Assembly: GCA_021801795.1 (NCBI GenBank)
Contig: JAJYXR010000026.1
Location: forward strand, 5,051-69,050
Direction: 5' to 3'
Origin: Actinomycetes bacterium
GTDB lineage: Bacteria; Actinomycetota; Acidimicrobiia; Acidimicrobiales; JAJYXR01
Length of the DNA: 64,000 nt
Shown here piece after piece: positions 4,038 through 62,775 of this stretch (position 1 is the first letter of the stretch; every line of letters starts with the position of its first letter). The notes under the pieces were generated by a model. That model saw only the letters and a list, made by a program, of their open reading frames with translations, ran no database searches and was not told where the DNA came from. A program made the position numbers and the translations under genes.

Positions 4038-4080
4038 CCTAACTGCTCCGCGCCTAACTGCTCCGCGCCTCACTGCTCTG
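4038..4080. repeat. 15-bp tandem repeat, about 2.7 copies (CCTAACTGCTCCGCG), spanning the padR stop codon
   Basis: Copies start at 4038, 4053 and 4068; the third is a variant, CCTCACTG. The padR stop (cta at 4054-4056 on the plus strand) lies in copy 2. Confidence 0.85.
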
Positions 4081-4752
4081 GCGGGGATGGGGCTGCTGGG
4101 ACGGCTGGTCGGCCGGTCCCGAGGAAGCCGCCGAGCGTTCGGCGTCGATCAGGTGGTCGAGCCAGGAGATGTCCTTCTCGGCCACCTCGGCAGTGTGCTC
4201 CACCAGGCTGAGCGCGTAGGAGTCGAGCAGATCGGCGGAGGCCGCGGAGCGCGCCTTGCTCAGCAGCTCTGCCATGTGGGCCCTACGGCGCTCGAGCAGG
4301 CGGATGCGCGACTGGGGTGGCAGGTGGCGGGCGAAGGCCAGCCGGAGACCGAAGAGCCTCGCGTCGTCCCCGGAGCCTCTGGCTTCTTCGTCGAGGAGCT
4401 TCACGAAGAGCCTCCGACCGTAGTCGGTGATCCTGTAGACCTTACGGGCGCGACGCTGCTTCGTGGTGGCGGAGATCCTGGAGCGCAGAGCAGCTCTCTC
4501 TCCGGAGAGCGAGCCGGTCATGGGAACGGGAATATGAGCTGGCGAGCCGGACGAGCCAGGGTCGGGCATCACCTCGAGCGCCCCGCTCTTCTCCAGGCGG
4601 TTCAGCGCCGGGTAGAGCGAGCCGTAGGAGACGTTCGAGAGTATGCCCAGCTCGTCGCGCAGCCGGCGGCGGATCTCGTAACCGTGCATGTCCCGCTCGG
4701 AGAGCAGGCCGAGTATGGCCAGCTCAAGCACAGCGGTATGCCTCAGGGGCAT
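4054..4752 (-). CDS. PadR family transcriptional regulator
   Basis: The N-terminal winged helix LELAILGLLSERDMHGYEIRRRL...SYGSLYPALNRLEKSG is the typical PadR signature. Its position next to ino1 matches M. tuberculosis Rv0047c. Confidence 0.9.
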   Translation of the reverse strand: MPLRHTAVLELAILGLLSERDMHGYEIRRRLRDELGILSNVSYGSLYPALNRLEKSGALEVMPDPGSSGSPAHIPVPMTGSLSGERAALRSRISATTKQRRARKVYRITDYGRRLFVKLLDEEARGSGDDARLFGLRLAFARHLPPQSRIRLLERRRAHMAELLSKARSAASADLLDSYALSLVEHTAEVAEKDISWLDHLIDAERSAASSGPADQPSQQPHPRQSSEARSS

Positions 4753-4800
4753 CGCCGGGCTCCCCCGGGCAGAGGCGGCTTCGGGTAAGGGTCGTGCCCA

Positions 4801-4830
4801 TGCCGGTGCCGGTGCCGGTGCCGGTGCCGC
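4801..4830. repeat. Hexanucleotide microsatellite (TGCCGG)x4 plus TGCCGC, upstream of padR
   Basis: Read directly at 4801-4830, in the padR-cca spacer about 50 bp upstream of the padR start. Confidence 0.9.
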
Positions 4831-4889
4831 CCATGCCTGTGCAGACTGTAGTCATTACCGATGTATCGTAGCGATATATCTAGCCGTAG

Positions 4890-6338
4890 TCAAGTCGAGC
4901 GGGAGGCCCACCAGGCGTCGAGGCGCCGGTAGGCCTCCTGCTCGCCGAGAGGTCCTTCGTCGAGCCTGAGATCGAGCAGGAACTCGAGCGCCTCGCCGAC
5001 GGCACGCCCGGGCCTGATCCCCAGGTGCTCCATGACCTGGTTGCCGTCGAGGTCGGGGCGGATGGCATCGAGCTCCTCCAGGCTCCTCAGCTCGGTGATA
5101 CGCGATTCGAGCTCGTCCATCCGCTCGGCGAGCTCACGGGCCTTCGCGGCGTTACGGGTGGTGCAGTCGCACCTGGTGAGCTCGTTCAGCCTCTCCAGGA
5201 GCGGACCAGCATCACGCACGTAGCGCCTCACCGCGCGGTCGCTCCAGCCGAGCCGGTAGGTGTGGAACCTCAGGTGGAGCTCGACGAGGGTGCTCACCAC
5301 CTCGATGTCCTCCCCGGAATAGTGCAGTGCCTTCATGCGGTCACGAGCCATCCGGCTGCCGACCACGTCGTGGTGATGGAAGCTCACGCCCTCTGGACCA
5401 TAGGAGCGAGTTCTGGGCTTTCCTATGTCATGGAGCAGGGCGGCGAGGCGCAGCAGCCTGTCGGGGCTGGCTTTGTCGACCACCGCAAGGGTGTGGGCGA
5501 GCACGTCCTTGTGCCGCTGGATGGGGTCCTGCTCCAGCTCGAGCGCGGGCAGCTCGGGCAGGAACTCGTCCGCGAGACCGGTTCTCACCAGGAACCACAG
5601 ACCCGGTGAGGGCTTGGGCACGACGAGCAGGCGATCGAGCTCGTCGCGTATGCGCTCGGGGGAGACTATTGCGAGCCTCTCGTGGAGGCTCTCCGCGGCC
5701 GCCACCAGCTCCGGCACCGGCTCGAAGCCGAAGCCCGCGATGAAGCGGGCGGCCCTCATCATCCTGAGGGGGTCGTCCGAGAAGGACTCCTCTGGGGTGA
5801 GCGGGGTCCGCAGGCGACCCGCGGCGAGGTCCTCCAGCCCTCCCCAGGGATCGATCAGCTCCATGCCGGGCATCCGGAGAGCCATCGCGTTCACCGTGAA
5901 GTCGCGCCTGGAGAGGTCCACCTCGATGGAGTCCCCGAAGAGAACCTCCGGCTTGCGGCTGTCTGACCTGTATGTCTCCACCCGGTGGGTGGTGATCTCG
6001 TAGCGCCTGGAGCGTCGCATGCAGCCGATGGTTCCGTAGAGCTTGCCCTGGAGCCAGACGGCGTCGGCCCATGGGGTCACTATCTCCTCGATGGCCTCCG
6101 GACGGGCATCGGTGGTCAGGTCGATGTCGGTCTGGTAGAGCTCCTGGCCGGCCTGAGCGGCACTCCTCGGCGGAGACGACGGACTCGACGAAGGCGAGGA
6201 AGGCGCGCCGGGGCTCTTAGCGAGTATGGCATCGCGAACCGAGCCACCGACGATGTAGAGGCTGTAGCCGGCCGCGGCGAAACGCCGCGCCAGCTCCTCG
6301 GTGGCCTCGGCTAGAGGCTTCACGCGCTCTGGGATCAT
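4890..6338 (-). CDS. cca: CCA tRNA nucleotidyltransferase / poly(A) polymerase family with HD domain
   Basis: YIVGGSVRDAIL nucleotidyltransferase motif, DFTVNAMA and RMMRAARF motifs, and a C-terminal HD region (LLHDIGKP). Synteny with M. tuberculosis pcnA (Rv3907c). Confidence 0.9.
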   Translation of the reverse strand: MIPERVKPLAEATEELARRFAAAGYSLYIVGGSVRDAILAKSPGAPSSPSSSPSSPPRSAAQAGQELYQTDIDLTTDARPEAIEEIVTPWADAVWLQGKLYGTIGCMRRSRRYEITTHRVETYRSDSRKPEVLFGDSIEVDLSRRDFTVNAMALRMPGMELIDPWGGLEDLAAGRLRTPLTPEESFSDDPLRMMRAARFIAGFGFEPVPELVAAAESLHERLAIVSPERIRDELDRLLVVPKPSPGLWFLVRTGLADEFLPELPALELEQDPIQRHKDVLAHTLAVVDKASPDRLLRLAALLHDIGKPRTRSYGPEGVSFHHHDVVGSRMARDRMKALHYSGEDIEVVSTLVELHLRFHTYRLGWSDRAVRRYVRDAGPLLERLNELTRCDCTTRNAAKARELAERMDELESRITELRSLEELDAIRPDLDGNQVMEHLGIRPGRAVGEALEFLLDLRLDEGPLGEQEAYRRLDAWWASRST

Positions 6339-6403
6339 CGGATCGAGGGTAGTGCGCTGGCGCGCGCCGCTGGCGACGACTCCGAGCGGGGCACCGGCCT
6401 CGG

Positions 6404-8518
6404 ATGCCAGGCACTACAATTCGGCGCCGCGTGTATACGTTCCCGCAGGGCGCTCTGCGCCGGGTTCGCGCCTGGATGTCATGCGTGGGCGCCGTCGCCA
6501 TATTCATGCTGCTGGCTGCCACGGGGCCTGCGGGCGCCTCCGGCGCGCCCGCCCGGAGCGCCGCGAGCCTGACTCTGCTCGGCCAGTCCACATGGGTGGC
6601 GCCTGGCCAGTCCTTCGATATGCACATCGGCGTAGTCGGTCCCGACCCGAGCAAGGTCTCGGTGGAGCTGACCCTCTACAGGCGCCTCAGGACCCAGTCG
6701 GCCTTTCGCGAGTCGCTTGGCACGGCGTCTGGCGAGGGGCCCGTCCTGGATCGTCTGGCCCCGGTGCCCCTGGCGTCGGTGCCTGCAGATCCACATGGTG
6801 GCTATGACCTCTTCGTGCCCATAGGCACCGGCGGTTCGCCGCCGGTGCCTCCCACCCCCTTCGGTGTGGTGCTGGCCTGCCAGATCTCGACCTGCGCCGG
6901 CGTCTACCCGGTGCGCGTCGCCCTCGTATCGGACAGCTCAGGGCTGCAGCTCGCGTCTATCGTCACGCAACTGGTCTTCGTCGAACCGCCTCCGGGTACC
7001 AGGCGCCTTCGCTTCGCCATCGTGGTCCCCATGTCACTGCCCTCCGGGGTAACCGATGCTGCCTCTGGGGCCTCGGTTCCTGCCGGGAGCTTCTCCTCGT
7101 TCAGCCGGGAGGCCACCAGCCTCTCGACTACCTCGCTCCCAGTCACCCTCCAGATCGAGCCTGCAGCCGTCGCGGCGCTGGAGGAGTCGAGCAGCCTGCC
7201 CGGTCGGCTGTCCTCGGCACGCTCCACGCTGTCGGCGCTGGCTGCAGCAGCGGGTGCTCCGTCGCACGAGAGCATCGCCTCTACCTACGTGCCGGTGGAC
7301 GCTGATGCCCTGGTGTCCGCAGGATTGGGTAGCTACCTGTCCACCCAGCTCTCACGCGCTGGCCACATCATGACCGGGGCCGGCATCCACACCCTGGGCG
7401 GGACATGGGTATCGGCTGGCACCCCCAGCGCGGCGTCCGTTTCCGAGCTGACCTCGCTGGGCATCCATCAGATGGTGCTGCCCGAGGACGCGCTGAGCGG
7501 CTCGGTGGGAACCCTCACCCCCACCCAGCCCTTCACGCTCAGCTCCGGCGGCGGCTCGGTCGTCCAGGCGGTAGTCAGCGACCCGGGGCTGGACACGGAG
7601 CTGGGCGACGCTGTCGGAACCAACGGCGTGCTGGCAGCCCACTGGCTGCTGGCCGACCTCGCGCTCATCTACTTCGAGCAGCCGAACCTCGACACCTTGA
7701 GAGGCGTGGTAGCAGTCGCTCCGACGAGCTGGGATCCCGGCAGAGGTTTCTTCTCTGCGTTTTTCTCGGGGCTGGCCACCAGTCCGGTGGTGGACCCCGT
7801 GACCGTGTCCAGCCTTCTCCAGAGCGTTCCCGCCGGTGTGGACGGCGAGGCCGCCGTGCGTCACCTGGCCCCGGTTCCTGGGTCAGCGTCGGCCCAGCTG
7901 CCCGCCGCGAGCATCCGAGCTGCCGGCGCTCGCCTCGACGCGTTCGAGAGCGCGGTGACGAACCCTGGGGTGATCGGGAACCTGACCGACTTCCTGCTGG
8001 CGACCCAATCGAGCCTGCTGAGCCCTCCCGAGCGCCCCAGGGCAGTGGGGACCTTCTACCGGGAGCTGGACATCCAGCTCCACCAGCTGGCACTCACCTC
8101 GGATAGGACGATTACCCTCACATCTACGACCGGCCGGGTGCCGGTGACCATACTGAGTGCCGCTCCCTACCCACTAAAGGTGATCCTCACGCTGAAGAGC
8201 GACGGCCTGGCGTTTCCTGACGGCTCCACGCGCACGCTGACCCTCGGCCGCAGCACCAACGCCGCATACCTGAACGTCCGGACGAAGACCCCCGGCGACT
8301 TCCCGGTCGAGATAAGCATCACCTCGCCCTCTGGAGGGCTCGTGTTCCTAGAAGGCCGGCTGACCATCCGGTCGCGCGCGGTGTCGCTGATGGGGATAGT
8401 GCTCTCGGTGGGTGCGATCCTGATCCTCCTCGCCTGGTGGTTCCGGACTGCCCGCTCTGGACACAGCAGGCTTCCCGCGCACGCCAGGCACCGGCAGGCC
8501 CGAGCAGGTACCCGATGA
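6404..8518 (+). CDS. Secreted, C-terminally membrane-anchored conserved protein (DUF6049-like, Rv3909 position)
   Basis: N-terminal signal-like segment (RRVRAWMSCVGAVAIFMLLAATGPAGASG), a long Ala/Ser/Thr/Leu/Val-rich extracytoplasmic body and one C-terminal TM helix (LMGIVLSVGAILILLAWWF). It lies immediately upstream of murJ, as in other actinobacteria. The family name is recalled, not searched. An alternative start is the ATG at 6476. Confidence 0.6.
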   Translation: MPGTTIRRRVYTFPQGALRRVRAWMSCVGAVAIFMLLAATGPAGASGAPARSAASLTLLGQSTWVAPGQSFDMHIGVVGPDPSKVSVELTLYRRLRTQSAFRESLGTASGEGPVLDRLAPVPLASVPADPHGGYDLFVPIGTGGSPPVPPTPFGVVLACQISTCAGVYPVRVALVSDSSGLQLASIVTQLVFVEPPPGTRRLRFAIVVPMSLPSGVTDAASGASVPAGSFSSFSREATSLSTTSLPVTLQIEPAAVAALEESSSLPGRLSSARSTLSALAAAAGAPSHESIASTYVPVDADALVSAGLGSYLSTQLSRAGHIMTGAGIHTLGGTWVSAGTPSAASVSELTSLGIHQMVLPEDALSGSVGTLTPTQPFTLSSGGGSVVQAVVSDPGLDTELGDAVGTNGVLAAHWLLADLALIYFEQPNLDTLRGVVAVAPTSWDPGRGFFSAFFSGLATSPVVDPVTVSSLLQSVPAGVDGEAAVRHLAPVPGSASAQLPAASIRAAGARLDAFESAVTNPGVIGNLTDFLLATQSSLLSPPERPRAVGTFYRELDIQLHQLALTSDRTITLTSTTGRVPVTILSAAPYPLKVILTLKSDGLAFPDGSTRTLTLGRSTNAAYLNVRTKTPGDFPVEISITSPSGGLVFLEGRLTIRSRAVSLMGIVLSVGAILILLAWWFRTARSGHSRLPAHARHRQARAGTR

Positions 8519-19084: not shown

Positions 19085-19480
19085 CTACCCGGGAGATCCG
19101 GATCTAGAGGCGTGCGCGCCCCGACGCACCGGCTGTGGCGCTACCGTGCTGCTGGACAGCGCGTCCGACACGCGGGCGCGCCCGGGGACGGGGTCGAAAC
19201 CCGATCCACCCCATGGGGCGCAACGGGCCAGCCTCGCTGTAGCCATGCGAAGCCCCCGGGACAGGCCGTGTATCTCTATGGCCTCCAGCGCGTAGCTGGA
19301 ACAGGTCGGCAGGTACCTGCACGGCGATGGCCTGCCAGACCTGGCCCCCTGATAGGCGCGGATGAGCCAGATCGCCAGCCTGGCGGGCCAGGATGCCGGC
19401 CTGGTCGACTCGGGGCGGGTCGACTCGGGGCGGGTCGCGGTGCTGCCATCCGTGGAGGGAAGTCCCGAGGTGTGCTGCAT
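19085..19480 (-). CDS. yidD: Membrane protein insertion efficiency factor YidD
   Basis: Core motif [35 protein letters not shown] chose the ATG at 19480, 2 nt after the rnpA stop. The N-terminus contains a 15-bp tandem repeat. Confidence 0.8.
19403..19439. repeat. 15-bp tandem repeat, about 2.5 copies (GGTCGACTCGGGGCG), inside the yidD 5' end
   Basis: Copies at 19403-19417, 19418-19432 and a partial at 19433-19439. It encodes [13 protein letters not shown]. Confidence 0.85.
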
Positions 19481-30419: not shown

Positions 30420-31988
30420 CTAGCGATCCGAGCAGGCGTAGCAGAGCTCGAAGCTCTTGTTCACGAGCGGGAAGTCCGGCAGGAGGTTCCCGGCCGTGGC
30501 ATGAGCTACTGCCGGCCAGTTGGCGTATGAGGCGGTGCGGAGGTGGAGCCGCTGGATGGTGGTTCCGTCGGACTCGACGATGCAGGTGGTCGCGCCGCGC
30601 GGGCCTTCCACGACGCCGACGCCGACGGGTGATCCCTCCGCGACAGCACCGGCCGTGGCATCGTGGAGGTCGCACCTCAGGAGGGTGTCGAGAAGCGCCA
30701 GCGTCGTCTCGAGCTCGGCTGCCCGTAGAGCCATGCGGGCAGCGACGTCACCCGTGGGGTCCACCGGGCTCGGCGGCTGGAGCTCCCTGTAGTCGAGCCG
30801 TGGGCTCTCGGAGCGGGTATCGGCAGGTATGCCCGAGGCGCGTGCCGCCGGGCCTACGGTGCCGAAGCGTGCAGCGCTGGAGGCATCGAGGACTCCGACT
30901 GCCGTGACCCGGTTCTGCACCGAGGTATTGAACAACACCTCTCGCCAGGAACGCATCGAATCCTCCCCGATCGAGCGGAGCTCCTGGCGCGCCTCGCGTC
31001 TCTCCCCACCTGCCAGGCAGAAGGCGCCCTTGGCGATCTGTATGGTGCCGAACATGAAACGGTGACCGGTGAGGCGACCGATGAGGCGCTGGGCTCTCTC
31101 CTTCAGGGCGGCGAACGCCATGGTGCCCGGTGCGAACCCGATACCGGCGCATATCGCGCCGATGTCGTTCAGATGGTTGTACAGGCGCTCCAGCTCTACT
31201 AGAACCGTGCGCTGGGTCTTCAGGGCGGCATCGGGCCAGAGCCCGAGCACCTCCTCGCAGGCCTGCGCGAAGGCCAGGGTGTTCGAGACGGCGCAGGCCC
31301 CGCAGGCACGCTGGACGATGGCAAGCCCCGTGTCGAGCGGGGCACCCACGGCAGCTCGCTCGAGACCCCGGTGGTTGTAGAACAGTCGCAGATCCAAATG
31401 CAGCACGCGCTCGCCGACCACGTGGAACCGGAAGTGCCCGGATTCGATCACCCCGGCGTGTATGGGTCCGACGGCCACTTGATGGGTGCCGGCTCCCACC
31501 ACGGGCACGGTCCAGGACTTGAGGCAATCCGAGTGGCTGATGAGGGGGCGCATCGGCACGTGGCCTGCGAAGTCCACCCCGTAGAGATCGTGTGCCTCGC
31601 GCTCATCCCACGCTGCGGCCGGAAGGATGTCGACGATGCTGGGGAACGTCCAGCCGGATCCAGAGGCGCCGGTTACAGAGGCGCCGGCTGGAGCTGCAGA
31701 CGCGCCCGCTAGGGAGGCCCCGGCACCTCGCAGCTCGCCCGACCGGCCTGGAACTGCCCGTGCCGAGAGCACCTTTACCTGGTCTCCGAAGCTGAAGACG
31801 CTCCTGATCGTGGTACCGGTCTCGTCGCGGCCAGCGCGGTCGCTGCATCTGGCTTCATCAGGTCCGACGGCATAGAGGCCCCTGAAGCGCCCACCACTGT
31901 GTATGGCTGAGTCATGTGCCTCGCGCCACGAGGAGGGCGTGGTCTGCACCAGGGTGGTGCCAGGGTTCTGCGGGGCGCTCTTGGTCAC
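30420..31988 (-). CDS. hycE: Group-4 [NiFe]-hydrogenase large subunit, fused NuoC-NuoD type (HycE-like)
   Basis: NuoC-like N-terminus (ERE.HDLYGVDFAGH). NuoD/large-subunit body with the N-terminal ligand pair RACGAC and the C-terminal pair ELCYACSDR directly followed by stop. The GTG at 31988 overlaps the upstream stop (GTGA). Confidence 0.9.
   Translation of the reverse strand: MTKSAPQNPGTTLVQTTPSSWREAHDSAIHSGGRFRGLYAVGPDEARCSDRAGRDETGTTIRSVFSFGDQVKVLSARAVPGRSGELRGAGASLAGASAAPAGASVTGASGSGWTFPSIVDILPAAAWDEREAHDLYGVDFAGHVPMRPLISHSDCLKSWTVPVVGAGTHQVAVGPIHAGVIESGHFRFHVVGERVLHLDLRLFYNHRGLERAAVGAPLDTGLAIVQRACGACAVSNTLAFAQACEEVLGLWPDAALKTQRTVLVELERLYNHLNDIGAICAGIGFAPGTMAFAALKERAQRLIGRLTGHRFMFGTIQIAKGAFCLAGGERREARQELRSIGEDSMRSWREVLFNTSVQNRVTAVGVLDASSAARFGTVGPAARASGIPADTRSESPRLDYRELQPPSPVDPTGDVAARMALRAAELETTLALLDTLLRCDLHDATAGAVAEGSPVGVGVVEGPRGATTCIVESDGTTIQRLHLRTASYANWPAVAHATAGNLLPDFPLVNKSFELCYACSDR
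31661..31690. repeat. 15-bp tandem duplication inside the hycE NuoC-NuoD linker
   Basis: CAGAGGCGCCGGTTA followed by CAGAGGCGCCGGCTG, with a further degenerate copy. It encodes part of the Gly/Ala/Ser linker GAGASLAGASAAPAGASVTGASGSG. Confidence 0.75.
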
Positions 31989-33451
31989 GAGGCCCACCTC
32001 ACGATTGCCTCCACCAGGAAGGAGCCAGGCAGGACGAACGCGAGGGACACGAGTGCCGACAGGGTGGCAGCACCGAACCCTGCCAGAACTCCGGCGGCAT
32101 GACGGGAGCGGGTCCCAACACGATGCCTCCGCCCCCCGAGGAGGCCTTCGAGCAGGGCGTGGAGCAGCCCGAGGAACCCCAGTGCCAATAGCAGGGCCGC
32201 CAGGCTTGCCGCGAGCACCTGGCCCGCGAGGAATCCACCCAGGAGGATGAAGAGCTCGCTGAAGAACAGCGGTGAAGGGGGCACCCCGCCCAGGGTTCCC
32301 AAGCTGAGGGCGAAGGAACTGGCCAGCGCAGGGCTCGACATCGCGAGGCCACGTACCGGCAGCTTCGCCGCGCTCGGGCGGCTGGCCAGCAGTGGAGTCG
32401 CTGTGTAGAACCCGAGTGCCTTCGCGCCAGCGTGGGCAGCCACATGCAGCACGACACCGGCAATCGCCAGTGGAGTCCCGAAGCCTATCCCCAGGGCGAT
32501 GATGCCCATGTGCTCCAGGCTCGAGTATGCGAGCAGGCGCTTCAAAGGCATGGGTCGCCAGAGGAACGGAACGGCCACGGCCAGCGACAGGAGGCCGAAG
32601 CCGATGAACAGGTAGGAAGCGGTGTTCCCTCCCAGGGCAGGCCCGAGGGCTATCTTCACCCGCCAGGCCACGAGCATGACGGTCGGTAGCAGCGCAGCGG
32701 AAAGCAAGGCACTCACCGGCGGTGGCGACTCGCTGTGCGCGTCCGGTAGCCAGTTGTGAACCGGGGCCCAACCTATCTTGGCAGCGAACCCAGCCATCAT
32801 CATGAAGAAGGAGACCAGTACGACATCGCGCGGGATGTGCCTGGCGAGCCGCGACAGAGCAGTCCAACCGAGGGCTCCGAGACCGGGGTCGTGAGCGGAT
32901 GCGTAGACCACGAGGATCCCCAGCAGCGCCACCGTGAGGCCTGCGGTGGTCAATATGAGGTACTTCCATCCCGCCTCGAGAGCGCTGCGTTTCCCGCTGA
33001 AGGCCACCAGGGGCGCGGACGCGGCAGTGGTCGCCTCCACGAGGAGCCAGGCCAGCCCAAGGTTCCCTGCCAGCGGTACGGCGAGCAGGGCAGCCCAGAA
33101 GCAGTAGAAGCCCAGGTAGTACCAGCGCCTCGAACGCTGGGGCGAGAAGAAGCTCCTCGTGGTGCCGTCAAGGAATCTCGGTGACAGCAAGGCGCTTGCC
33201 ATGCCTACGAGCGAGGTGACGCAGAGGAAGACCACGGCCACCGGGTCGATGGTGAGCAGCCCCGTAGTGGCGGCTGGACGCAGCCACAGGTCCATGCCCC
33301 CGAGGCTGAGACCGGCGCCAGCGGTGGTCAGCGCGAAGACCCGGTTCAGGTGGTCACCGACGTGGTCGTCCGCGAAGAGCTGGATGATCAGTCCACCGGC
33401 CAGGGGCAGGAGCACCACCAGCATGGCGAGATCGGTAAGATGGTCAATCAC
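31985..33451 (-). CDS. NuoN/NuoM-like proton-conducting membrane subunit (HyfF/HycQ-like)
   Basis: Polytopic protein with the PF00361-type core (GWAPVHNWLPDAHSESPPPVSALLSAALL). The GTG at 33451 overlaps the upstream gene by 8 nt. An alternative start is the ATG at 33424. Confidence 0.85.
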   Translation of the reverse strand: MIDHLTDLAMLVVLLPLAGGLIIQLFADDHVGDHLNRVFALTTAGAGLSLGGMDLWLRPAATTGLLTIDPVAVVFLCVTSLVGMASALLSPRFLDGTTRSFFSPQRSRRWYYLGFYCFWAALLAVPLAGNLGLAWLLVEATTAASAPLVAFSGKRSALEAGWKYLILTTAGLTVALLGILVVYASAHDPGLGALGWTALSRLARHIPRDVVLVSFFMMMAGFAAKIGWAPVHNWLPDAHSESPPPVSALLSAALLPTVMLVAWRVKIALGPALGGNTASYLFIGFGLLSLAVAVPFLWRPMPLKRLLAYSSLEHMGIIALGIGFGTPLAIAGVVLHVAAHAGAKALGFYTATPLLASRPSAAKLPVRGLAMSSPALASSFALSLGTLGGVPPSPLFFSELFILLGGFLAGQVLAASLAALLLALGFLGLLHALLEGLLGGRRHRVGTRSRHAAGVLAGFGAATLSALVSLAFVLPGSFLVEAIVRWAS

Positions 33452-41426: not shown

Positions 41427-41618
41427 ATGCGCCTAGAGCTGGACCAAGACGCCTGCCAGGGCCACGGCCGCTGCTATGCGCTGGCACCGGAGCTCTTCGA
41501 GGCCGACGAGCGCGGCCACTGCCGGCTGCTCATAGACCTGGTCCCCGACGGACTCGAGTCTTCAGCGCGCGACGGGGTGGATAACTGCCCGGAACGGGCT
41601 CTTACACTGAGCGACTAG
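41427..41618 (+). CDS. Small ferredoxin, 3Fe-4S type, P450 redox partner
   Basis: 63 aa with DACQGHGRC ... NCPERA. Located immediately downstream of the P450. Confidence 0.85.
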   Translation: MRLELDQDACQGHGRCYALAPELFEADERGHCRLLIDLVPDGLESSARDGVDNCPERALTLSD

Positions 41619-41697
41619 GCACCGAGCGACTAGGCACCGAGCGGCTGGACACCGAGCGACTGGGCACCGAGCGACTGGGCACCGAGCGGCTGGCACC
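41609..41697. repeat. 15-bp tandem repeat, 6 copies (GAGCGACTAGGCACC and variants), starting in the ferredoxin stop codon
   Basis: Copies start at 41609, 41624, 41639, 41654, 41669 and 41684. The TAG at 41616-41618 in copy 1 is the ferredoxin stop. Confidence 0.9.
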
Positions 41698-41728
41698 CCG
41701 GGACTGGGTTCAGCGGCCAGGGCAGTGC

Positions 41729-44768: not shown

Positions 44769-46301
44769 ATGAGCGCATCGGAAGCCACGGCGGAGGGCGC
44801 TGCCGGAGCCGGTCGGGACCCGGCGCCGACGGAGCATCCGGTTCTGGGTGAGCCGCGCCTCACCGTGGGCGGGTCGCTGGTCGAGTCACGCTCCGGTGCT
44901 CTGTTCGAGAACATGGACCCGGCTACGGAGCTGGTCCTCGGGCACTGCGCCGACGGCTCCACCGAGGACATGCAGGACGCGATCGAGGCTGCCAGGACGG
45001 CCTTCGACACCACCGGCTGGTCCACGGACCCGGCCTTCAGGAGCCGGTGCCTCTACCAGCTCTTCGAGGCCATGGAGGCCCACAAGGAGGAGCTGCGATC
45101 GGTGGTGGTGGCCGAGGCCGGCTCTCCGGTGGCGATGACCTACGCGGTCCAGGTGGAGGAACCTGTCGCGGACATGGCCTACTGGGCAGAGCTGGCCGGC
45201 AGCTACGAGTACGACCGGCCGCTTCCCGACCGCGAGGTCTTCGGTCAGATGCAGCGCCGGCTGGTGGCGCGGGAGGCGGTAGGGGTGGTGGGTGCCATCA
45301 CCCCCTGGAACTTCCCGCTCTACCTGAACGTGGCGAAGCTGGCGCCCGCGCTGGCGGCCGGGAACACGGTGGTGCTGAAGCCGGCTCCCGACACGCCGTG
45401 GTCGGCCACCTGGCTAGGCAGGCTGGCCGTGGAGGAGACCGACATTCCACCGGGCGTGCTGAACGTGGTCGCCTCCTCGGACCATCTGGTGGGTGAGACG
45501 CTCACCAGCGATCCCAGGGTGGACATGATCACCTTCACCGGCTCGACGGCCACCGGACGGCGGATAATGGCCTCGGCCTCGCAGAGCCTGAAGAAGGTCT
45601 TCCTGGAGCTCGGTGGGAAATCCGCGAACATCGTGCTCGATGACGCCGACGTGGCATCAGCGGTTGCCTTCAGCGCCATCGGCGTCTGTGTCCACGCAGG
45701 GCAGGGCTGTGCCATAACCACGCGCCTCTTGCTGGCACGGTCTGTCTACGACGAAGGCATCGAGCTGGCAGCAGAGGCAATGCGAGGCATCGGCGTAGGC
45801 GACCCCTGGGACCCCGCGAACCTGCAGGGGCCACTCATAAACGCCCGCCAGCGGGAGAGGGTCTTTGGCTACGTCGAGGCAGGCAAGGCGAGCGGTGCCA
45901 GACTGGTGCTAGGTGGAGGGGTGCCCGAGGGCCTGGGCCGGGGGTTCTACGTGGAGCCGACCCTCTTCGCTGACGTGGACCCGGACGCGACTCTAGCCCA
46001 GGAGGAGATATTCGGCCCGGTGCTCGTGGTGATCCCCTTCGACGACGACGACGACGCGGTCCGGATAGCCAACCATTCGAGATACGGGCTCTCGGGGGCG
46101 GTGAACAGTGCATCGGAGGAGCGGGCCACCGCGGTCGCGAGGAGGCTGAGGACCGGAACGGTCTCGGTGAACGGGGGGATGTGGTTCTCCCCCGACGTCC
46201 CCTTCGGAGGGTATCGACAGAGCGGGATCGGCCGCGAGAACGGCATCGAGGGCTTCGAGGAGTACCTCGAGGTGAAGGCCCTCGCGTTCCCTAAGTCCTA
46301 A
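44769..46301 (+). CDS. NAD(P)-dependent aldehyde dehydrogenase
   Basis: FTGSTATGRRI, ELGGKSANIV and the catalytic-Cys region GQGCAITTR. The start at ATG 44769 is approximate. Confidence 0.9.
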   Translation: MSASEATAEGAAGAGRDPAPTEHPVLGEPRLTVGGSLVESRSGALFENMDPATELVLGHCADGSTEDMQDAIEAARTAFDTTGWSTDPAFRSRCLYQLFEAMEAHKEELRSVVVAEAGSPVAMTYAVQVEEPVADMAYWAELAGSYEYDRPLPDREVFGQMQRRLVAREAVGVVGAITPWNFPLYLNVAKLAPALAAGNTVVLKPAPDTPWSATWLGRLAVEETDIPPGVLNVVASSDHLVGETLTSDPRVDMITFTGSTATGRRIMASASQSLKKVFLELGGKSANIVLDDADVASAVAFSAIGVCVHAGQGCAITTRLLLARSVYDEGIELAAEAMRGIGVGDPWDPANLQGPLINARQRERVFGYVEAGKASGARLVLGGGVPEGLGRGFYVEPTLFADVDPDATLAQEEIFGPVLVVIPFDDDDDAVRIANHSRYGLSGAVNSASEERATAVARRLRTGTVSVNGGMWFSPDVPFGGYRQSGIGRENGIEGFEEYLEVKALAFPKS

Positions 46302-46332
46302 GTCCTAAGTCCTAAGTCCTAAGTCCTAAGTC
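46291..46332. repeat. Heptanucleotide tandem repeat (CTAAGTC)x6, starting in the aldehyde dehydrogenase stop codon
   Basis: Six perfect copies at 46291-46332. The TAA at 46299-46301 is the gene's stop. Confidence 0.95.
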
Positions 46333-46354
46333 CTGGCGGACCCAGGCACCATGG

Positions 46355-46399
46355 AGCCGGCGGCACGGTGGGGCTCCAGCCGGCGGCACGGTGGGGCTC
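46355..46399. repeat. 23-bp period tandem duplication (AGCCGGCGGCACGGTGGGGCTC x2)
   Basis: Identical 22-mers at 46355-46376 and 46378-46399, ending 5 nt before the CoA-transferase stop. Confidence 0.9.
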
Positions 46400-50111: not shown

Positions 50112-50147
50112 ACCTCTGTCGTTCGGGACCTCTGTCGTTCGGGACTC
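50112..50147. repeat. 16-bp tandem repeat, about 2.2 copies (ACCTCTGTCGTTCGGG), in the DUF35-thiolase junction
   Basis: Identical copies at 50112-50127 and 50128-50143, then a partial copy. Confidence 0.9.
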
Positions 50148-50654: not shown

Positions 50655-51512
50655 ATGTCCGAGGGGTCAGCCAGTACCGGGTCAGCCAGTACCGGGTCAG
50701 CAGAGCAGGAGATACTGCATCGCGTCGAGGAGAGGGTGTCATGGATAACGCTGAACCGGCCCGAGGTGTCGAACGCCATGACGCCGGCTCAGCGGGAGCT
50801 GGTCATCGCCCTTCTGGAGGAGGCCAGTGCCTCGCTGGCGATAGGGGCCGTGGTGATCACCGCTACAGGCAAGGGTTTCTGCACGGGCGCGGATCTCCGC
50901 CCGGGCAGCAGGGTCCCGGCCCCGAGGCCGGAGGGTGCTCCGGAGAGGGCCATGTGGGACGTGACGCGGATGATCCGTTCGGGGGCCCAGCGGCTGATCG
51001 AGGCCGTGCTGGACTGCGAGAAGCCGGTAGTCGCGGGGGTGAACGGAACTGCGGCCGGGCTCGGGGCGCACCTGGCGTTCGCGTGTGACCTGGTGGTGGC
51101 TGCCGATCAGGCGCGCTTCATCGAGGTCTTCGTCCGCCGTGGCATCGCCCCCGACGCCGGGGGTGCCTACCTGCTGCCGCGCCTGGTGGGCCTGCAGGCA
51201 GCGAAGGAGATGGTGTTCTTCGGCGACGACATCTCCGCCGAAAGGGCCGGGCGTCTTGGCCTGGTGAACAGGGTGGTGCCGGCCCATGAGCTCCCCTCCA
51301 CGCTGGCCGAGATCGCCGGGAGGCTCGCGTCGGGCCCCACGAAGGCACTCGGTGCTGCGAAGTGGCTGCTGAACCGATCGCTCGACTCGGATCGCCGGAC
51401 CGCTTTCGAGGAGGAAGCCATGGTCCAGGAGCTGGTCACCTCGACGGCCGATATGCGGGAGGGCATGGCTGCCTTCGCCGAGAGGCGTTCGGCGGATTTC
51501 CGGGGCTGGTGA
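50655..51512 (+). CDS. Enoyl-CoA hydratase/isomerase (crotonase) family
   Basis: ITLNRPEVSNAM..., the GKGFCTGADL oxyanion-hole region and VNGTAAGLG. The ATG is preceded by GAGGAGGG. Confidence 0.9.
   Translation: MSEGSASTGSASTGSAEQEILHRVEERVSWITLNRPEVSNAMTPAQRELVIALLEEASASLAIGAVVITATGKGFCTGADLRPGSRVPAPRPEGAPERAMWDVTRMIRSGAQRLIEAVLDCEKPVVAGVNGTAAGLGAHLAFACDLVVAADQARFIEVFVRRGIAPDAGGAYLLPRLVGLQAAKEMVFFGDDISAERAGRLGLVNRVVPAHELPSTLAEIAGRLASGPTKALGAAKWLLNRSLDSDRRTAFEEEAMVQELVTSTADMREGMAAFAERRSADFRGW
50664..50702. repeat. 15-bp tandem repeat, about 2.6 copies (GGGTCAGCCAGTACC), in the crotonase 5' end
   Basis: Copies at 50664-50678 and 50679-50693, then a partial. It encodes GSASTGSASTGSA. Confidence 0.9.
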
Positions 51513-52792: not shown

Positions 52793-52810
52793 CCCCGTCG
52801 CCTGTGGAAC

Positions 52811-52866
52811 CCGAAGACCTCGTGAAGCCCCGAAGACCTCGTGAAGCCCCGAAGACCTCGTGAAGC
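52811..52866. repeat. 19-bp tandem repeat x3 (CCGAAGACCTCGTGAAGCC) between the amidohydrolase and SDR genes
   Basis: Copies at 52811-52829, 52830-52848 and 52849-52866. Each copy carries GTGA. Confidence 0.9.
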
Positions 52867-53753: not shown

Positions 53754-56063
53754 ATGGTCGCCCCACGCGCCGCCATGGAGCCGGCTCCGAAGCGGCTCGA
53801 TCTCGAAAGGTTCTTCCATCCCGAAGCAGTGGCGCTGGTCGGTTCGGTGAACCGGAAGGCAGATCCCGCGAACCTGGCCCGCTACTACGACAGTCGCTGG
53901 GGCGAGGGGCGCTGGTACCTGGTGAACGTCCACGGCGGCTCCGTGGGCGACATCCCCATCTACGAGCACGTCACCTCGGTGCCGGTGCCCCTGACCCTCG
54001 CTGTGGTGAACGTGGGGACCAAGCTGGTGGCAGGGGTCATGGAGGAGTGCGGCGTCGGCGGGGTTCCCTTCGTGCTCGTCTTCAGCGCGGGCTTCAGCGA
54101 GGTGGGACCCGAAGGTGCGGCCCTGGAGCGTGAGGTCGGCCAGATCGCGAAGCGTTACGGGATAAGGGTTTTCGGACCGAACACGAACACGAACGCCTTC
54201 GAACGTCTTGCCCAGCCATCGCGGGTCCGCGGTGGCAGGATCGGGCTGGTGACCCAGAGCGGCCATCAGGGACGTCCGATCGTCCAGGGGACCGAGTTCG
54301 GCGTAGCCTTCAGCCGCTGGGTCCCTACCGGCAACGAGCTGGACCTGGAGGCCGCCGACTTCATCGAGTACTTTGCCGGCGACGACGAGACATCGGTGGT
54401 GGCTGCCTACCTGGAGGGGTTCCGGGACCCGGCGAAGCTCCGCCGTGCACTGGAGGCGGCGAACGCGGCCGCGAAGCCCATCGTGGTCCTGAAGATCGGT
54501 TCCACCGCGGCAGGCAGCCGGATGGCTGCCTCGCACACCGGGCACCTGGCTGGCTCCGACGCGGTGGTGGACGGTCTCTTTGCCCAGCACGCGGTGGTGC
54601 GCGTGCGGGATCTCGACGAGCTGCTGGAGACCTCCGCGCTCTTCGCGAAGCTCCCGCGTCCGACTGGTCCGAACTGCGCGCTCTACTCCATATCGGGAGG
54701 ATCGGGTGCCCTGATGGCTGAGGTAGCAGAGTCCCATGGGGTGCCGGTCCCTGTCCTTTCGGAGAAGACCCGCAAGGCCCTCCACGACGTGGTCCCCGAG
54801 TACCTCACCGTCTCCAACCCGGTGGACAACGGTGCGGAGTTCCTGGTGCGGGCGCCAGTGGAGGCGCGCCGGAGGGTGTTCGAGCTCATCTGCGGCGACC
54901 CGACGGTGGATCTCGTGGTGGTGGGCCTCACCGGGGCGCTAGGACGCCTCACCGACCGGTTCGCCGAGGACATAGTCGCCTTTGCCGACGACCTGGCCAA
55001 GCCGGTGGTGGTCACCTGGAACTCCTTCAAGACCGACCAGGAGGGCTTCCGCCGGCTGGCCGACTCGGGGCTGCCGATGTTCCGCTCCTTCCGTAACTGC
55101 TTCGCAGCCATAGCTGCCTTCTCCCGCTACCAGGCAGCCTCGAAGAGCTTCAGGCACAGGAAGCCTTTCCCGGTCCGCGTCCCCTCCGAGGCCCGCATGG
55201 TGCTGGCCAGGCTCGATCCGAGAATGGCGGGCGACGACGGGCCGGTGCTCGCCGATCCGGGCAAGCTAGCCCTGCCGGGCCAGCCAGCCGATCCGGGCAA
55301 GCCAGCCCTGCCGGGCCAGCCAGCCGATCCGGGCAAGCCAGCCCTGCCGGGTGGGCCAGGCGGGCGGGTGGTGCTCGACGAGGCCTCCGCTGCTGGCCTG
55401 CTCGCGTCCTTTGGTATCCCGCTGGCCGACCAGGCTGTGGCGGCTACCGCTAGCGAGGCAGCGCGCGTGGCCGGTCAGATCGGCTTCCCTGTGGTCATGA
55501 AGATCGCGTCCGTGGACTTTCCCCACAAGTCCGATGCCGGGCTGGTGCGCCTCGGGGTCTCTTCTTCATCCGAGGCAAGGCGGGTGTTCGCGGAGATCAT
55601 GGCCGGGGCGAAGCAGGCCAACCGGCATGCCAGGATCGACGGGGTCACCGTCCAGCGTGAGGTGAGGGACTCTACGGAGATGATCGTGGGGGTTACGAGG
55701 GATCCGGTCCTCGGTCCCGCGGTGATGGTCGGCACCGGGGGGGTCTTCGCGGAGGTGATGGCAGACGTGGCCGTGCGCCCGCTCCCCCTGGACCGGCTGG
55801 ACGCAGAGGAGATGCTGGCCTCCCTACGAGGCGCGGCACTGCTCCATGGTGCCCGCGGGCGTCCGAAGGCCGACGTGAAGGCCCTGGTGGAGGTGGTCGT
55901 GTCGGTAGCCCGTATGGCCTCGGCCTGCTCGGCCAGCCTGCTGGAGCTCGACCTGAACCCCCTGGCGGTCCTGGCGAAGGGAAAGGGAGCGGTGGCTCTC
56001 GACGCGCTGGTGGTGATGTCCTCCACGACCTTGTCGAAGGAGCACCGATGGACCTGGAGCTGA
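53754..56063 (+). CDS. ADP-forming acyl-CoA synthetase (acetate-CoA ligase [ADP-forming] family; CoA-binding, ligase and ATP-grasp domains fused)
   Basis: N-terminal CoA-binding region (FFHPEAVALVGS), a succinyl-CoA-synthetase-like middle with SHTGHLAG (phosphohistidine loop) and a C-terminal ATP-grasp (GFPVVMKI). 769 aa. Confidence 0.85.
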   Translation: MVAPRAAMEPAPKRLDLERFFHPEAVALVGSVNRKADPANLARYYDSRWGEGRWYLVNVHGGSVGDIPIYEHVTSVPVPLTLAVVNVGTKLVAGVMEECGVGGVPFVLVFSAGFSEVGPEGAALEREVGQIAKRYGIRVFGPNTNTNAFERLAQPSRVRGGRIGLVTQSGHQGRPIVQGTEFGVAFSRWVPTGNELDLEAADFIEYFAGDDETSVVAAYLEGFRDPAKLRRALEAANAAAKPIVVLKIGSTAAGSRMAASHTGHLAGSDAVVDGLFAQHAVVRVRDLDELLETSALFAKLPRPTGPNCALYSISGGSGALMAEVAESHGVPVPVLSEKTRKALHDVVPEYLTVSNPVDNGAEFLVRAPVEARRRVFELICGDPTVDLVVVGLTGALGRLTDRFAEDIVAFADDLAKPVVVTWNSFKTDQEGFRRLADSGLPMFRSFRNCFAAIAAFSRYQAASKSFRHRKPFPVRVPSEARMVLARLDPRMAGDDGPVLADPGKLALPGQPADPGKPALPGQPADPGKPALPGGPGGRVVLDEASAAGLLASFGIPLADQAVAATASEAARVAGQIGFPVVMKIASVDFPHKSDAGLVRLGVSSSSEARRVFAEIMAGAKQANRHARIDGVTVQREVRDSTEMIVGVTRDPVLGPAVMVGTGGVFAEVMADVAVRPLPLDRLDAEEMLASLRGAALLHGARGRPKADVKALVEVVVSVARMASACSASLLELDLNPLAVLAKGKGAVALDALVVMSSTTLSKEHRWTWS
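55251..55355. repeat. 36-bp in-frame tandem repeat, about 2.9 copies, in the inter-domain linker of the ADP-forming synthetase
   Basis: Copies start at 55251, 55287 and 55323. It encodes ADPGKLALPGQP, ADPGKPALPGQP and ADPGKPALPGGP. Confidence 0.9.
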
Positions 56064-60086: not shown

Positions 60087-60122
60087 CTCTCACCTCCGTT
60101 GGTCGGTGTGGCTCGCGGTGGC

Positions 60123-61325: not shown

Positions 61326-61346
61326 GCCTAGATCGTAGCCTCTGGG

Positions 61347-61362
61347 CTGACGTGTGTGTCAG
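61347..61362. promoter_or_regulatory. Island palindrome copy E: CTGACgtgtgtGTCAG
   Basis: Located in the 39-bp gap between the thiolase-fold gene stop (61365) and the ACAD start (61325). Confidence 0.5.
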
Positions 61363-61364
61363 GT

Positions 61365-62666
61365 TCAGTAAGGTTCGCTGGTAAGCAGCAGGCAGCCTGC
61401 GATTGGGCCGCCCCCGTTGGCCACTGCTGCCACCGCAGGAGGCCTGCCGCTCGGCCCCACCCGTACCTGCCTGGCGCCCCCCCCGCCTCTCAGCTGCAGG
61501 CATGCCTCGTGCAGCAGACCGAACCCGTGCAGCCTGCCGCCGGAGAGCTGGCCGCCACCGGTGTTCAGTGGGAGCGATCCATCCAGGGCGATGCGCGACC
61601 CGCCCTCTACGAAGGAGCCGCTCTCGCCGCGCCCCGCGAAGCCGAGGGCCTCCAGCCAGACCATGGTGAGGATGCTGAATCCGTCGTAGAGCTCGGCCAC
61701 CTCCACGTCCTCGGGACGCAGATCCGTGCGCTGCCAGAGGCTCGCGCCGGCGTCGCGTGCTGCCATGGTGGTCATGTCGTCGAACTGGTCCCAGCTGGGA
61801 CGGCCCCTGAGGGCAGTGCCAATCGCGTTCACGTGGGCTACTGGGTGGCGAGCGTCCTTGGCGTAGGCCGATGACGACACCACCAGGGCCGTGGAACCGT
61901 CGCAGGGCGCATCGCAGTCGTATAGGCACAGGGGGGTGGAGATCATCCGGGCAGCCATGTAGTCCTCCAGGGACATCGGCTCGCGGTAGACCGCTGCGGG
62001 GTTGGCGCCGGCATTTCGCCGGGCATTGATGGCTATCTGGGCAAGCTGCTCTCGGCTGAGCCCGAACTCGTGGAACCGCCGCTGGGCCACCAGCGCGATC
62101 CAGTTCACGGCCGACACGGCCCCGAACGGGAGGCTCCACTGGAGGAAGCCCGAGAACCGCGGCACCCCGCGTGATCCCCCGGCGCCCTCAGCCGAGCCTC
62201 CCCCGCCGCCCTCAGCCGAGCCTCCCCCGCCACCCTCAGCCGAGCCTCCCCCGCCGCCGATGCCCCGCCGCCCCCCGGCGCCCTGGGCCGTCGACTCGGT
62301 CACCGTCCTGTAGACCAGCACGTGCCTGGCAAGCCCCGCTGCGACGGCCAGGCAGGCAGCGAAGAAGGCCCTCACCTGGCCGGCGCCCTCGGAGCCGCCG
62401 TCGTGCCAGCTCAGCTGCAGGCGGAGGGCATCCTGGACCTCCGGGGTGCCTGGGCCGGCGAACCCCGGTGTACCGATCCCTGCCCCCGGGTAGGTCGAGA
62501 GGCCGTCGATGTCGTCGCGGCTGAGACCGGCATCGGCGATGGCCGCCAGGCAGGCTTCCACGGTGAGGTCGATGTCGCTGCGCCCGAGGTGCCTGCCGAT
62601 CTGCGACTGGCCCATGCCGCTCACCACGGCCCTCCGCTCGAGGATCTTCGCCTCCAGAGCGCTCAC
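61365..62666 (-). CDS. Thiolase-fold protein of the SCP-x/Ltp type that apparently lacks the nucleophilic Cys (possible aldolase-type)
   Basis: It aligns with 48887-50092 over its whole length. NACATG of the paralogue corresponds by hand alignment to SEGAG here. It contains a (GGGGSAEG)x3 insertion. The GTG start at 62666 lies in the 40-bp repeat. Confidence 0.8.
   Translation of the reverse strand: MSALEAKILERRAVVSGMGQSQIGRHLGRSDIDLTVEACLAAIADAGLSRDDIDGLSTYPGAGIGTPGFAGPGTPEVQDALRLQLSWHDGGSEGAGQVRAFFAACLAVAAGLARHVLVYRTVTESTAQGAGGRRGIGGGGGSAEGGGGGSAEGGGGGSAEGAGGSRGVPRFSGFLQWSLPFGAVSAVNWIALVAQRRFHEFGLSREQLAQIAINARRNAGANPAAVYREPMSLEDYMAARMISTPLCLYDCDAPCDGSTALVVSSSAYAKDARHPVAHVNAIGTALRGRPSWDQFDDMTTMAARDAGASLWQRTDLRPEDVEVAELYDGFSILTMVWLEALGFAGRGESGSFVEGGSRIALDGSLPLNTGGGQLSGGRLHGFGLLHEACLQLRGGGGARQVRVGPSGRPPAVAAVANGGGPIAGCLLLTSEPY
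62185..62256. repeat. 24-bp in-frame tandem repeat x3 inside the thiolase-fold gene
   Basis: Copies at 62185-62208, 62209-62232 and 62233-62256. It encodes GGGGSAEG three times. Confidence 0.9.
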
Positions 62667-62775
62667 CGGGCACCGCCTCCGCTGCGCGGGCTCTCGCGGG
62701 GGTCACCGGGCACCGCCTCCGCTGCGCGGGCTCTCGCGGGGGTCACCGGGCACCGCCTCCGCTGCGCGGGCTCCC
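62663..62775. repeat. 40-bp tandem repeat, about 2.8 copies, spanning the DUF35 stop and the thiolase-fold start
   Basis: Copies start at 62663, 62703 and 62743 (unit TCACCGGGCACCGCCTCCGCTGCGCGGGCTCTCGCGGGGG). The thiolase GTG (62664-62666) is in copy 1 and the DUF35 TGA (62743-62745) is at the same unit position in copy 3. Confidence 0.9.

Follow-up and report, generated by a model that had tools for sequence, protein, structure and literature searches.

The stretch of DNA analysed here (the window, 64,000 nucleotides, G000:C2:5051-69050) carries a series of short tandem repeat arrays that are the subject of this work. It belongs to a metagenome-assembled genome (MAG) of the Acidimicrobiales (2.5 Mb, 43 contigs, 92% complete, 67% GC), whose GyrB protein shares no more than 85% identity with its counterparts in uncultured Acidimicrobiales MAGs from peat, palsa and soil. 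Among the genomes that we compared, its family contains only one further species representative, which is placed in a different genus (the sister genus, G001). Pfam labels on near-identical contigs showed two blocks of genes in the window, namely the replication origin region (rnpA, yidD, yidC, dnaA, dnaN, recF, dciA, gyrB and gyrA) and a block of acyl-CoA metabolism genes.

Arrays were called with Tandem Repeats Finder (TRF) at a score of 50 or more, and a fifth-order Markov copy of the genome served as the null. We made a second count with an exact-repeat scan by unit length, in which the main class comprised units of 10-60 bp present in at least two exact copies. Genes were predicted with our own codon-bias caller (2067 genes, 89% coding), and densities in relatives were estimated from 9-200 kb of sequence per genome (30-120 kb in most). 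The gene contexts of arrays were assigned from Pfam labels on near-identical contigs and by direct reading of the junctions; these contigs came from other samples and were retrieved by exact-protein look-ups, and start codons were confirmed on them. All 13 arrays listed in an earlier note on this DNA were recovered by TRF, with coordinates, units and copy numbers nearly as given there, and their gene contexts also held. Units are at least 7 bp long in 12 of the 13. The arrays are listed below, along with one gene junction that is the site of a duplication in another strain.

4038-4078: 15-bp unit, 2.7 copies; the padR stop codon (TAG, 4054-4056, minus strand) lies in unit 2
4801-4829: 6-bp unit (TGCCGG), 4.8 copies; padR leader, 49-77 bp upstream of the start; polymorphic
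19403-19437: 15-bp unit, 2.3 copies, in frame; 5' part of yidD (19085-19480, minus strand); encodes TRPES repeats
31653-31687: 15-bp unit, 2.3 copies, in frame, 90% identity; linker of a fused Complex1_30kDa/49kDa (hycE-like) gene; polymorphic
31971-31997: minus strand, overlapping stop/start junction GTGA-GGTGGGCCTC-GTGA of an antiporter-like gene and hycE; site of a 14-bp duplication in another strain
41604-41708: 15-bp unit, 7.0 copies, 85% identity; begins on the ferredoxin stop codon (TAG, 41616-41618) and fills the convergent spacer
46290-46334: 7-bp unit (CCTAAGT), 6.4 copies; the aldehyde dehydrogenase stop codon (TAA, 46299-46301) lies in unit 2; polymorphic
46355-46399: 23-bp unit, 2.0 copies, perfect duplication; convergent spacer between the aldehyde dehydrogenase and CoA-transferase genes
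50112-50145: 16-bp unit, 2.1 copies, perfect; between the DUF35 (OB_ChsH2) stop at 50158 and the thiolase Shine-Dalgarno site and start at 50092
50664-50701: 15-bp unit, 2.5 copies, perfect, in frame; codons 4-16 of the crotonase (ECH_1) gene
52810-52866: 19-bp unit, 3.0 copies, perfect, intergenic; between the amidohydrolase stop and the SDR start; polymorphic
55251-55351: 36-bp unit, 2.8 copies, in frame, (ADPGKPALPGQP)n; linker of an ADP-forming acyl-CoA synthetase; polymorphic
62175-62258: 24-bp unit, 3.5 copies, in frame, 95% identity; N-terminal third of a thiolase-fold gene; unchanged in contig L126
62663-62773: 40-bp unit, 2.8 copies, perfect; DUF35-thiolase junction; polymorphic

The stop codons of the padR, ferredoxin and aldehyde dehydrogenase genes lie inside arrays, and extra, non-coding copies of the stop region follow behind them. 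Unit 1 of the 4038 array, for example, is a dead copy downstream of the padR stop. The 40-bp array triplicates a complete junction, comprising the DUF35 stop, the Shine-Dalgarno site and the GTG start of the thiolase gene; the original junction reads GGAGG...GTGA, that is, a ribosome-binding site followed by a start codon that overlaps the stop. The hexamer array in the padR leader is situated downstream of a promoter-like site (4893-4865) and of its putative -10 element. Overlapping this site (TTGACT-17-TACGAT, minus strand), upstream of padR, is an AT-rich, partly palindromic stretch (4859-4893, CGATATATCTAG) that TRF reports as 2.1 copies of a 13-bp unit, and which could be the operator and promoter for PadR.

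The fourteenth duplication in the earlier note, a 231-nt repeat in the cwlM-like gene, was weaker than described, since only a 53-nt core at 89% identity is shared between two PG_binding_1 domains. It is an old domain duplication, and a class apart from the short arrays. Short-k Logan contigs of several runs ended inside this repeat (window position 13011), in the 36-bp array (55296 and 55322) and in the 24-bp array (62218), indicating that the arrays fragment short-k assemblies of this organism.

The earlier note had also claimed that the units were unrelated and did not form one mobile family, and this was borne out across the genome. Among 659 units there was no dominant family, and no consensus unit across loci was found. 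Pairs of units sharing an 11-mer were 2.5 times as frequent as in random genome segments (359 as against approximately 145), and were linked by GC-rich words only. Each locus is therefore a local duplication that has no sequence in common with the others, and the lack of a shared unit family excludes elements resembling mycobacterial interspersed repetitive units (MIRUs), repetitive extragenic palindromes (REPs) and miniature inverted-repeat transposable elements (MITEs). A dispersed family of the MIRU type was rejected since units at different loci are not homologous; REP elements or bacterial interspersed mosaic elements (BIMEs), MITEs and clustered regularly interspaced short palindromic repeats (CRISPR) were rejected since copies are directly adjacent and each unit is confined to one locus. 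We also looked at folding. Units in non-coding DNA folded slightly better than controls (-0.166 versus -0.146 kcal per nt, p=0.02), no difference in folding energy was seen between units in coding sequence (CDS) and their controls, and units were richer in GC than the background (0.73 versus 0.66). Allowing for this higher GC, the tendency of the units to form hairpins did not markedly exceed that of controls.

The abundance of arrays was a property of the genome as a whole. TRF reported 670 arrays, of which 202 were perfect and 358 had at least 95% identity, as against 39 arrays, none of them perfect, in the 2.5 Mb of the Markov null (about one per 64 kb). With 13 arrays, or 203 per Mb, the window is typical of a genome that carries 263-267 per Mb. 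When codons were shuffled within genes, the genic arrays vanished. The excess was specific to one class of unit length. Exact arrays with units of 10-60 bp numbered 507 (202 per Mb), as compared to approximately 290 per Mb in the sister genus, 45-64 per Mb in other Acidimicrobiales, 5 per Mb in Ralstonia and Rhodococcus replicons and 3.6 per Mb in the Markov null. This corresponds to a 3- to 6-fold excess over other Acidimicrobiales, and an excess of about 40-fold over the two other high-GC replicons. Units of 1, 2, 3, 4-6 and 7-9 bp showed no excess, and were close in number to the Markov null and to other genomes.

The claim that such a density is unusually high for a bacterial chromosome needs to be restricted accordingly. 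It is correct for the young class of arrays, the near-perfect repeats of 10-60 bp. At 95% identity or more there were 141 arrays per Mb in this genome and 214 in the sister genus, with 10-93 in closer relatives and approximately 16 in 17 other families pooled. It does not extend to total TRF density, which is not far outside that of high-GC relatives (75-350 per Mb in other high-GC Acidimicrobiales; 90 in a Ralstonia megaplasmid, 110 in the Rhodococcus plasmid pRHL1 and 20 in Escherichia coli). The whole order is raised in 10-60 bp repeats, and this family is extreme within it. The suggestion of a lineage tendency to duplicate short segments was upheld by this genome-wide excess, which is common to the only other genus of the family. 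GC content was rejected as the cause, because it did not correlate with repeat load among relatives (Spearman 0.15, p=0.45). Arrays of this kind were also present in long-read MAGs of relatives. A second lineage with raised counts was seen in family f39, where two genomes of 54% GC (G066 and G143), which do not encode the standalone flap endonuclease (FEN)-like nuclease considered below, carried 104-125 exact repeats per Mb in the 10-60 bp class. Repeats of another kind were found in G014, a relative with few short arrays, where a locus at approximately 10.4-19.0 kb of L098 (G014:C1:900001-920000) is packed with long tandem repeats having units of 174-348 bp and identities of 76-97%. We searched the literature for tandem repeats in Acidimicrobiia or Acidimicrobiales, and no relevant work came up.

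We then asked where the arrays are located. Only 384 arrays were fully contained in CDS as against 553 expected, and in 364 of these (95%) the period was divisible by three; nearly all of the remaining 20, whose periods are out of frame, had low identity. We saw no ON/OFF switching by frameshift, in that high-identity frame-shifting arrays were absent from genes. Arrays were more frequent than expected in intergenic DNA (193 observed, 49 expected) and on stop codons (67 observed, 25 expected). Within 30 bp of a stop codon there were 175 arrays (68.5 expected, standard deviation 8) and within 30 bp of a start codon 115 (72.7 expected, standard deviation 7.7), so that the enrichment near CDS termini for which the earlier note had proposed a check was 2.6-fold at stops and 1.6-fold at starts. 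Its picture of survivors concentrated at gene ends, linkers and junctions therefore stands for stops, the vicinity of starts, protein ends and linkers, and fails for arrays that overlap a start codon (18 observed, 27 expected) or span a whole junction (8 observed, 16 expected), neither of which was enriched. Arrays occurred at 1.29 per kb in convergent spacers, 1.06 in tandem spacers, 0.89 in divergent spacers and 0.17 in CDS, i.e. about one array per kb of non-coding DNA and an approximately 6-fold depletion per kb of CDS. Even so, 320 of the 2067 genes, or 15% of predicted proteins, contained at least one array. Within proteins, arrays favoured the first and last deciles and encoded peptides rich in G, P, Q, A and S, while hydrophobic residues were avoided.

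This pattern is what would be expected of a roughly uniform supply of duplications that is filtered by selection. Such a filter implies that arrays of any period are tolerated on a stop codon or across a whole junction. In the window arrays that we read directly, the first stop of a duplicated stop region still terminates the upstream protein, and at the duplicated junctions (62663-62773 and, in another strain, 31971-31997) the last ribosome-binding site and start serve the downstream gene. Outside the window, at G000 C2:133567-133594, we noted a perfect two-copy duplication of a 14-bp unit, a period not divisible by three, in a confidently predicted gene of 411 codons and 126 nt before its stop; this could be a frameshift of recent origin, by which the last 40 or so residues of the protein are replaced.

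Comparison with near-identical assemblies showed that the arrays vary in copy number, which was a check that the earlier note had suggested. The contig ena:ERZ27237285:k141_471632 covers window positions 2593 to 76860, its last 12.9 kb lying beyond the window on C2. Over approximately 74 kb, it differed from our genome by seven indels, every one of which consisted of whole units at a TRF array: one 6-bp unit, two 7-bp units, and one unit each of 19, 36, 40, 16 and 12 bp. There were only seven base differences, all of them within 2633-7978, and two of these lay inside the hexamer array, where a TGCCCA unit was converted to TGCCGG. From 8 to 76.9 kb, a distance of 69 kb, there was no single-nucleotide polymorphism (SNP), and yet 6 of 14 arrays differed, from which the rate of change per array is at least about 10^4 times the rate per base. 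The confinement of all base differences to 5.4 kb, followed by 69 kb with none, looks like a small recombination import into a clonal background.

The alleles found at individual arrays were as follows. In the near-identical contig L119 the 4801 array had one unit fewer and included the TGCCCA variant unit, and the copy number of the 4038 array was identical to ours. L126 had two units fewer at the 46290 array, leaving the encoded aldehyde dehydrogenase unchanged at 510 aa. The 19-bp array at 52810 was one unit shorter in two independent assemblies (L126 and L127), and the 40-bp array was one unit shorter in L126 and L295; a scan of JGI metagenomes with a 23-mer adjoining the 19-bp array gave no match. 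A second assembly, ERZ27237044, agreed with ERZ27237285 in its short alleles at two arrays. For the acyl-CoA synthetase, an allele of 757 aa was found in five contigs, four of them 50-200 kb long, and the window allele of 769 aa in one contig, with the long allele recurring in an independent JGI fragment. The hycE linker array was represented in 11 Logan contigs by an allele of 530 aa with one more VTGAS unit, and a 99.5%-identical strain in Logan contigs has this additional unit. Our genome was the longer in all seven differences from the ERZ contig. At two of the seven, the short allele was also present in a more distant strain, which identifies those two as gains in the lineage of this genome.

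The same 99.5%-identical Logan strain provided a view of the birth of an array. The antiporter-like gene overlaps hycE by 13 nt in the window. In the Logan strain, 14 bp including one GTGA are tandemly duplicated at this junction (GTGA-N10-GTGA), which is a change from ABA to ABABA with 4 nt of microhomology. The first TGA ends the upstream protein and the second GTG starts HycE with the same N-terminus, so both proteins are unchanged and the duplication removes the overlap between the genes. Microhomology was general. Among 102 perfect two-copy arrays, only 10% had no extra matching bases, as against approximately 50% expected in the absence of microhomology; more than half had 1-6 nt, and most had 1-8 nt. 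Copy numbers fell off roughly geometrically (102, 37, 23, 10, 8...).

These observations suggest the following scheme. At birth, of which we have seen one event, a nascent strand would re-pair at a direct repeat of about 1-8 nt located 10-60 bp away, such that the intervening stretch is copied twice and ABA becomes ABABA. Turnover, which is seen between strains, would occur by slippage or unequal exchange, with whole units gained or lost at least about 10,000 times as fast as single bases are substituted, and would keep the copies identical; the changes seen in this lineage appear as gains. Selection, whose effect is evident in the location statistics, would then remove most intragenic events. 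The survivors would be in-frame repeats in flexible linkers or protein ends, repeats in non-coding DNA, duplications across a stop codon in which the first stop still ends the protein, and duplications of a whole junction, where translation of the upstream gene would end at the first stop, and that of the downstream gene would begin from the last ribosome-binding site and start.

Taken together, we think it probable that the arrays are the output of an unusually fast mutational process in this Acidimicrobiales family, and that they are mostly neutral or near-neutral loci of the variable-number tandem repeat (VNTR) or minisatellite type. In kind they are ordinary, but for a bacterial genome both their number and their turnover are extreme. 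Several points weigh against this interpretation. First, the differences in copy number rest on assemblies, and a genome that is longer in seven out of seven cases could in principle reflect a habit of the assembler. Assembly error is nevertheless an unlikely source of the differences, because the seven variable arrays span 29-111 bp (29, 45 and 57 bp in three of them) and are thus shorter than both k=141 and the read length, and because the long allele of the 36-bp array recurs in a JGI contig. Secondly, about one quarter of the two-copy arrays have a partial copy of more than 10 nt, which simple slippage at microhomologies does not predict; degenerate older copies at the edges of arrays were rejected as the source of these long partial copies (flank identity 0.33, control 0.29). 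Thirdly, some arrays counted as intergenic probably lie in genes or 5' extensions missed by our gene caller, because periods of 15 and 18 are over-represented there. Finally, no single repair gene among those compared over 21 relatives tracks the repeat trait.

The repair complement, which the earlier note had proposed to inspect, was indeed reduced in both genera of the family (G000 and G001), where MutS, NucS, Ku, a standalone FEN-like nuclease and an ImuB-like gene are missing, without any one of these genes tracking the trait. MutS (domain I) was absent from all 21 genomes examined. NucS was absent here, but also in 9 of 19 relatives that have few arrays. The absence of Ku excludes end-joining. 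ExoVII (exonuclease VII) and PolA are present in the family, and the Y-family polymerases are represented by a single DinB-like gene, with no ImuB-like gene. Loss of NucS, Ku or the standalone flap endonuclease did not account for the high rate. Elsewhere in the replication complement of the window, a DciA-family gene (PF05258, 24343-24672) is present between recF and gyrB, as expected where the replicative helicase is loaded without DnaC or DnaI.

Loss of the standalone flap endonuclease was the most suggestive lead, and would be a specific defect in replication or repair: Okazaki flaps would be cut by Pol I alone, and re-annealing of uncut flaps would generate gain-biased duplications between short direct repeats, as in yeast rad27/FEN1 mutants. 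The gene for a standalone 5'-nuclease of about 300 aa (FenA/ExoIX-like, PF02739) is found in 17 of 19 relatives in the order and is absent from this genome and from the sister genus. A tblastn search with the standalone nucleases of three relatives matched only PolA in this genome, and synteny with the closest relative breaks exactly at the standalone nuclease gene, inside an unbroken contig. The size class of 10-60 bp, the microhomology and the seven gains out of seven all fit this explanation, and the signature described for rad27-delta in PMC5677150 (ABA to ABABA, insertions exceeding deletions, and minisatellite instability) matches what we see. However, when the gene was followed through 250 genomes, its loss was largely refuted as a sufficient cause, and we rejected it as such. 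Independent families that wholly lack the gene have low densities (0-10 per Mb in f22; 0-8 per Mb in f36, including a genome of 68.7% GC), genomes without the gene outside this family pool to 80 and 41 per Mb as against 50 per Mb in genomes with it, and closer relatives that keep the gene have intermediate densities. Moreover, the 5'-nuclease domain of PolA is intact and retains every residue conserved at 90% or more, and the loss of the standalone enzyme counts as a single phylogenetic event. We consider this explanation improbable, and assign a low probability also to the loss as a contributor.

A slightly less probable alternative is that the arrays are selected contingency or tuning loci, in which changes in copy number adjust linkers, 5' leaders, translational coupling or 3' ends, and whose density is maintained because being variable is of use. 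The arrays are hypervariable, and some occupy sites that could matter, such as the padR leader, the two DUF35-thiolase junctions with a ribosome-binding site, and enzyme linkers; copy number of promoter tandem repeats has been reported to be phase-variable in Mycobacterium tuberculosis (PMC12817950). On the other hand, the absence of high-identity frame-shifting arrays in genes leaves no ON/OFF switches, and there is no enrichment of the 1-9 bp units that are typical of contingency loci. The highest density is in convergent spacers, which offer the least scope for regulation, variable arrays on stop codons leave the protein unchanged, and arrays are spread over housekeeping genes of all kinds rather than being concentrated in surface or stress genes. 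The term contingency-like used in the earlier note is hence apt for the hypervariability, and not for switching.

About equally doubtful is the proposal that the mutation rate is ordinary, and that arrays accumulate through weak selection against small insertions, owing to a small effective population size or drift. Most arrays do look harmless, and a reduced repair set and a small genome could accompany a particular population structure. Changes in 6 of 14 arrays over 69 kb without a SNP, however, indicate a high rate of change and not merely poor removal, and selection is plainly effective, as judged from the 95% of CDS arrays that are in frame and the depletion per kb of CDS. The genome is also compact, at about 89% coding by our caller.

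Least probable of all is that the arrays or their copy differences are artefacts of metagenome assembly or binning, for although the genome is a MAG in 43 contigs that is longer at every variable array, and short-k Logan contigs are interrupted at them, assemblies of other samples (MEGAHIT at k141, Logan and JGI) contain these arrays with identical units, the variable arrays are below k and read length, long-read MAGs of relatives have such arrays, and the in-frame and gene-end biases are biological and beyond what an assembler produces.

Returning to the interpretation of a fast mutational process, we tentatively suggest, as a possibility that we hold with much less confidence, that the family, and to a lesser degree the order, has a heritable peculiarity of replication or of the lagging strand that generates gain-biased 10-60 bp duplications at rates orders of magnitude above those in other bacteria. 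Such a 'minisatellite mutator' would depend on a factor outside those that we tested. If true, it would continually lengthen linkers, separate overlapping genes and remodel gene junctions, and a comparison of repeat load and gene content among members of the order could reveal the factor. If there is a single genetic cause, the order, with densities from approximately 0 to 300 per Mb, would be a natural comparison for what stabilises 10-60 bp repeats. In any case, the arrays can serve as very rapidly changing markers of strains in an uncultured lineage of soil and peat, and can resolve populations that have no SNP over tens of kilobases. For work with MAGs, it is relevant that short-k contigs break at arrays, and that repeat insertions of strain-dependent length are present in 15% of predicted proteins. 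The duplicated stop/start junction is a natural demonstration that overlapping genes can be separated with neither protein changed, and the distribution of arrays one of how selection shapes where insertions survive.

Among known systems, the closest are bacterial VNTRs and minisatellites, such as the non-MIRU ETR, QUB and Mtub loci used in multiple-locus VNTR analysis (MLVA) of M. tuberculosis. As in those loci, both TRF and the exact-repeat scan found head-to-tail copies of units of about 10 bp or longer (approximately 10-60 bp), each locus is a local duplication sharing no sequence with other loci, the sites are intergenic or in frame, and whole units vary between close strains, as seen in assemblies rather than reads, far faster than bases are substituted. 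The difference is one of scale. Typing schemes for M. tuberculosis use only a few dozen loci in 4.4 Mb, whereas here there are about 500 exact arrays in 2.5 Mb, affecting 320 of 2067 genes and about one per non-coding kb. The arrays here are mostly of 2-4 copies, and the observed differences are all gains in this lineage.

MIRUs, which are a dispersed family of related units of 40-100 bp, are similar in that tandem units between the genes of an operon carry the upstream stop and the downstream start, as does the 40-bp array at 62663. Unlike MIRUs, the units of different arrays here have no sequence in common, and every array is a duplication of the sequence resident at its own site. In the contingency loci of host-adapted bacteria such as Neisseria, Haemophilus and Campylobacter, genes are turned on or off when repeats with 1-8 bp units alter the reading frame or the spacing of the promoter. 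The arrays resemble these loci in being hypermutable repeats that vary between clones, but the 1-8 bp class is at the level of the null and shows no excess here, and changes in copy number shift neither frame nor promoter spacing, given that the period is in frame in 364 of 384 genic arrays and that the padR hexamer array is located past the putative -10 element. The arrays are thus neither mobile elements, MIRUs nor classical contingency switches.

Two further comparisons rest on published work. In M. tuberculosis, the copy number of promoter tandem repeats is reported to be phase-variable, and a few promoter loci have been linked to phenotypes (PMC12817950). Both cases concern actinobacteria, repeats in 5' regions and copy changes in near-clonal populations; the repeats described here are, unlike those, genome-wide and located mostly at 3' ends and in linkers, and the padR array is downstream of the putative -10. 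In yeast deficient in rad27 (FEN1), according to the summary of Tishkoff 1997 and Kokoska 1998 in PMC5677150, insertions convert ABA to ABABA with a unique part of 1-91 bp, insertions exceed deletions and minisatellites are unstable. Duplications of tens of base pairs between short direct repeats, minisatellite instability and gains in excess of losses were likewise found here. In this lineage, by contrast, the flap nuclease of Pol I is intact, and in other families the trait cannot be predicted from the absence of the second FEN-like gene, so that the trait does not follow a loss of flap nuclease. The likeness is one of signature and does not imply a common cause.

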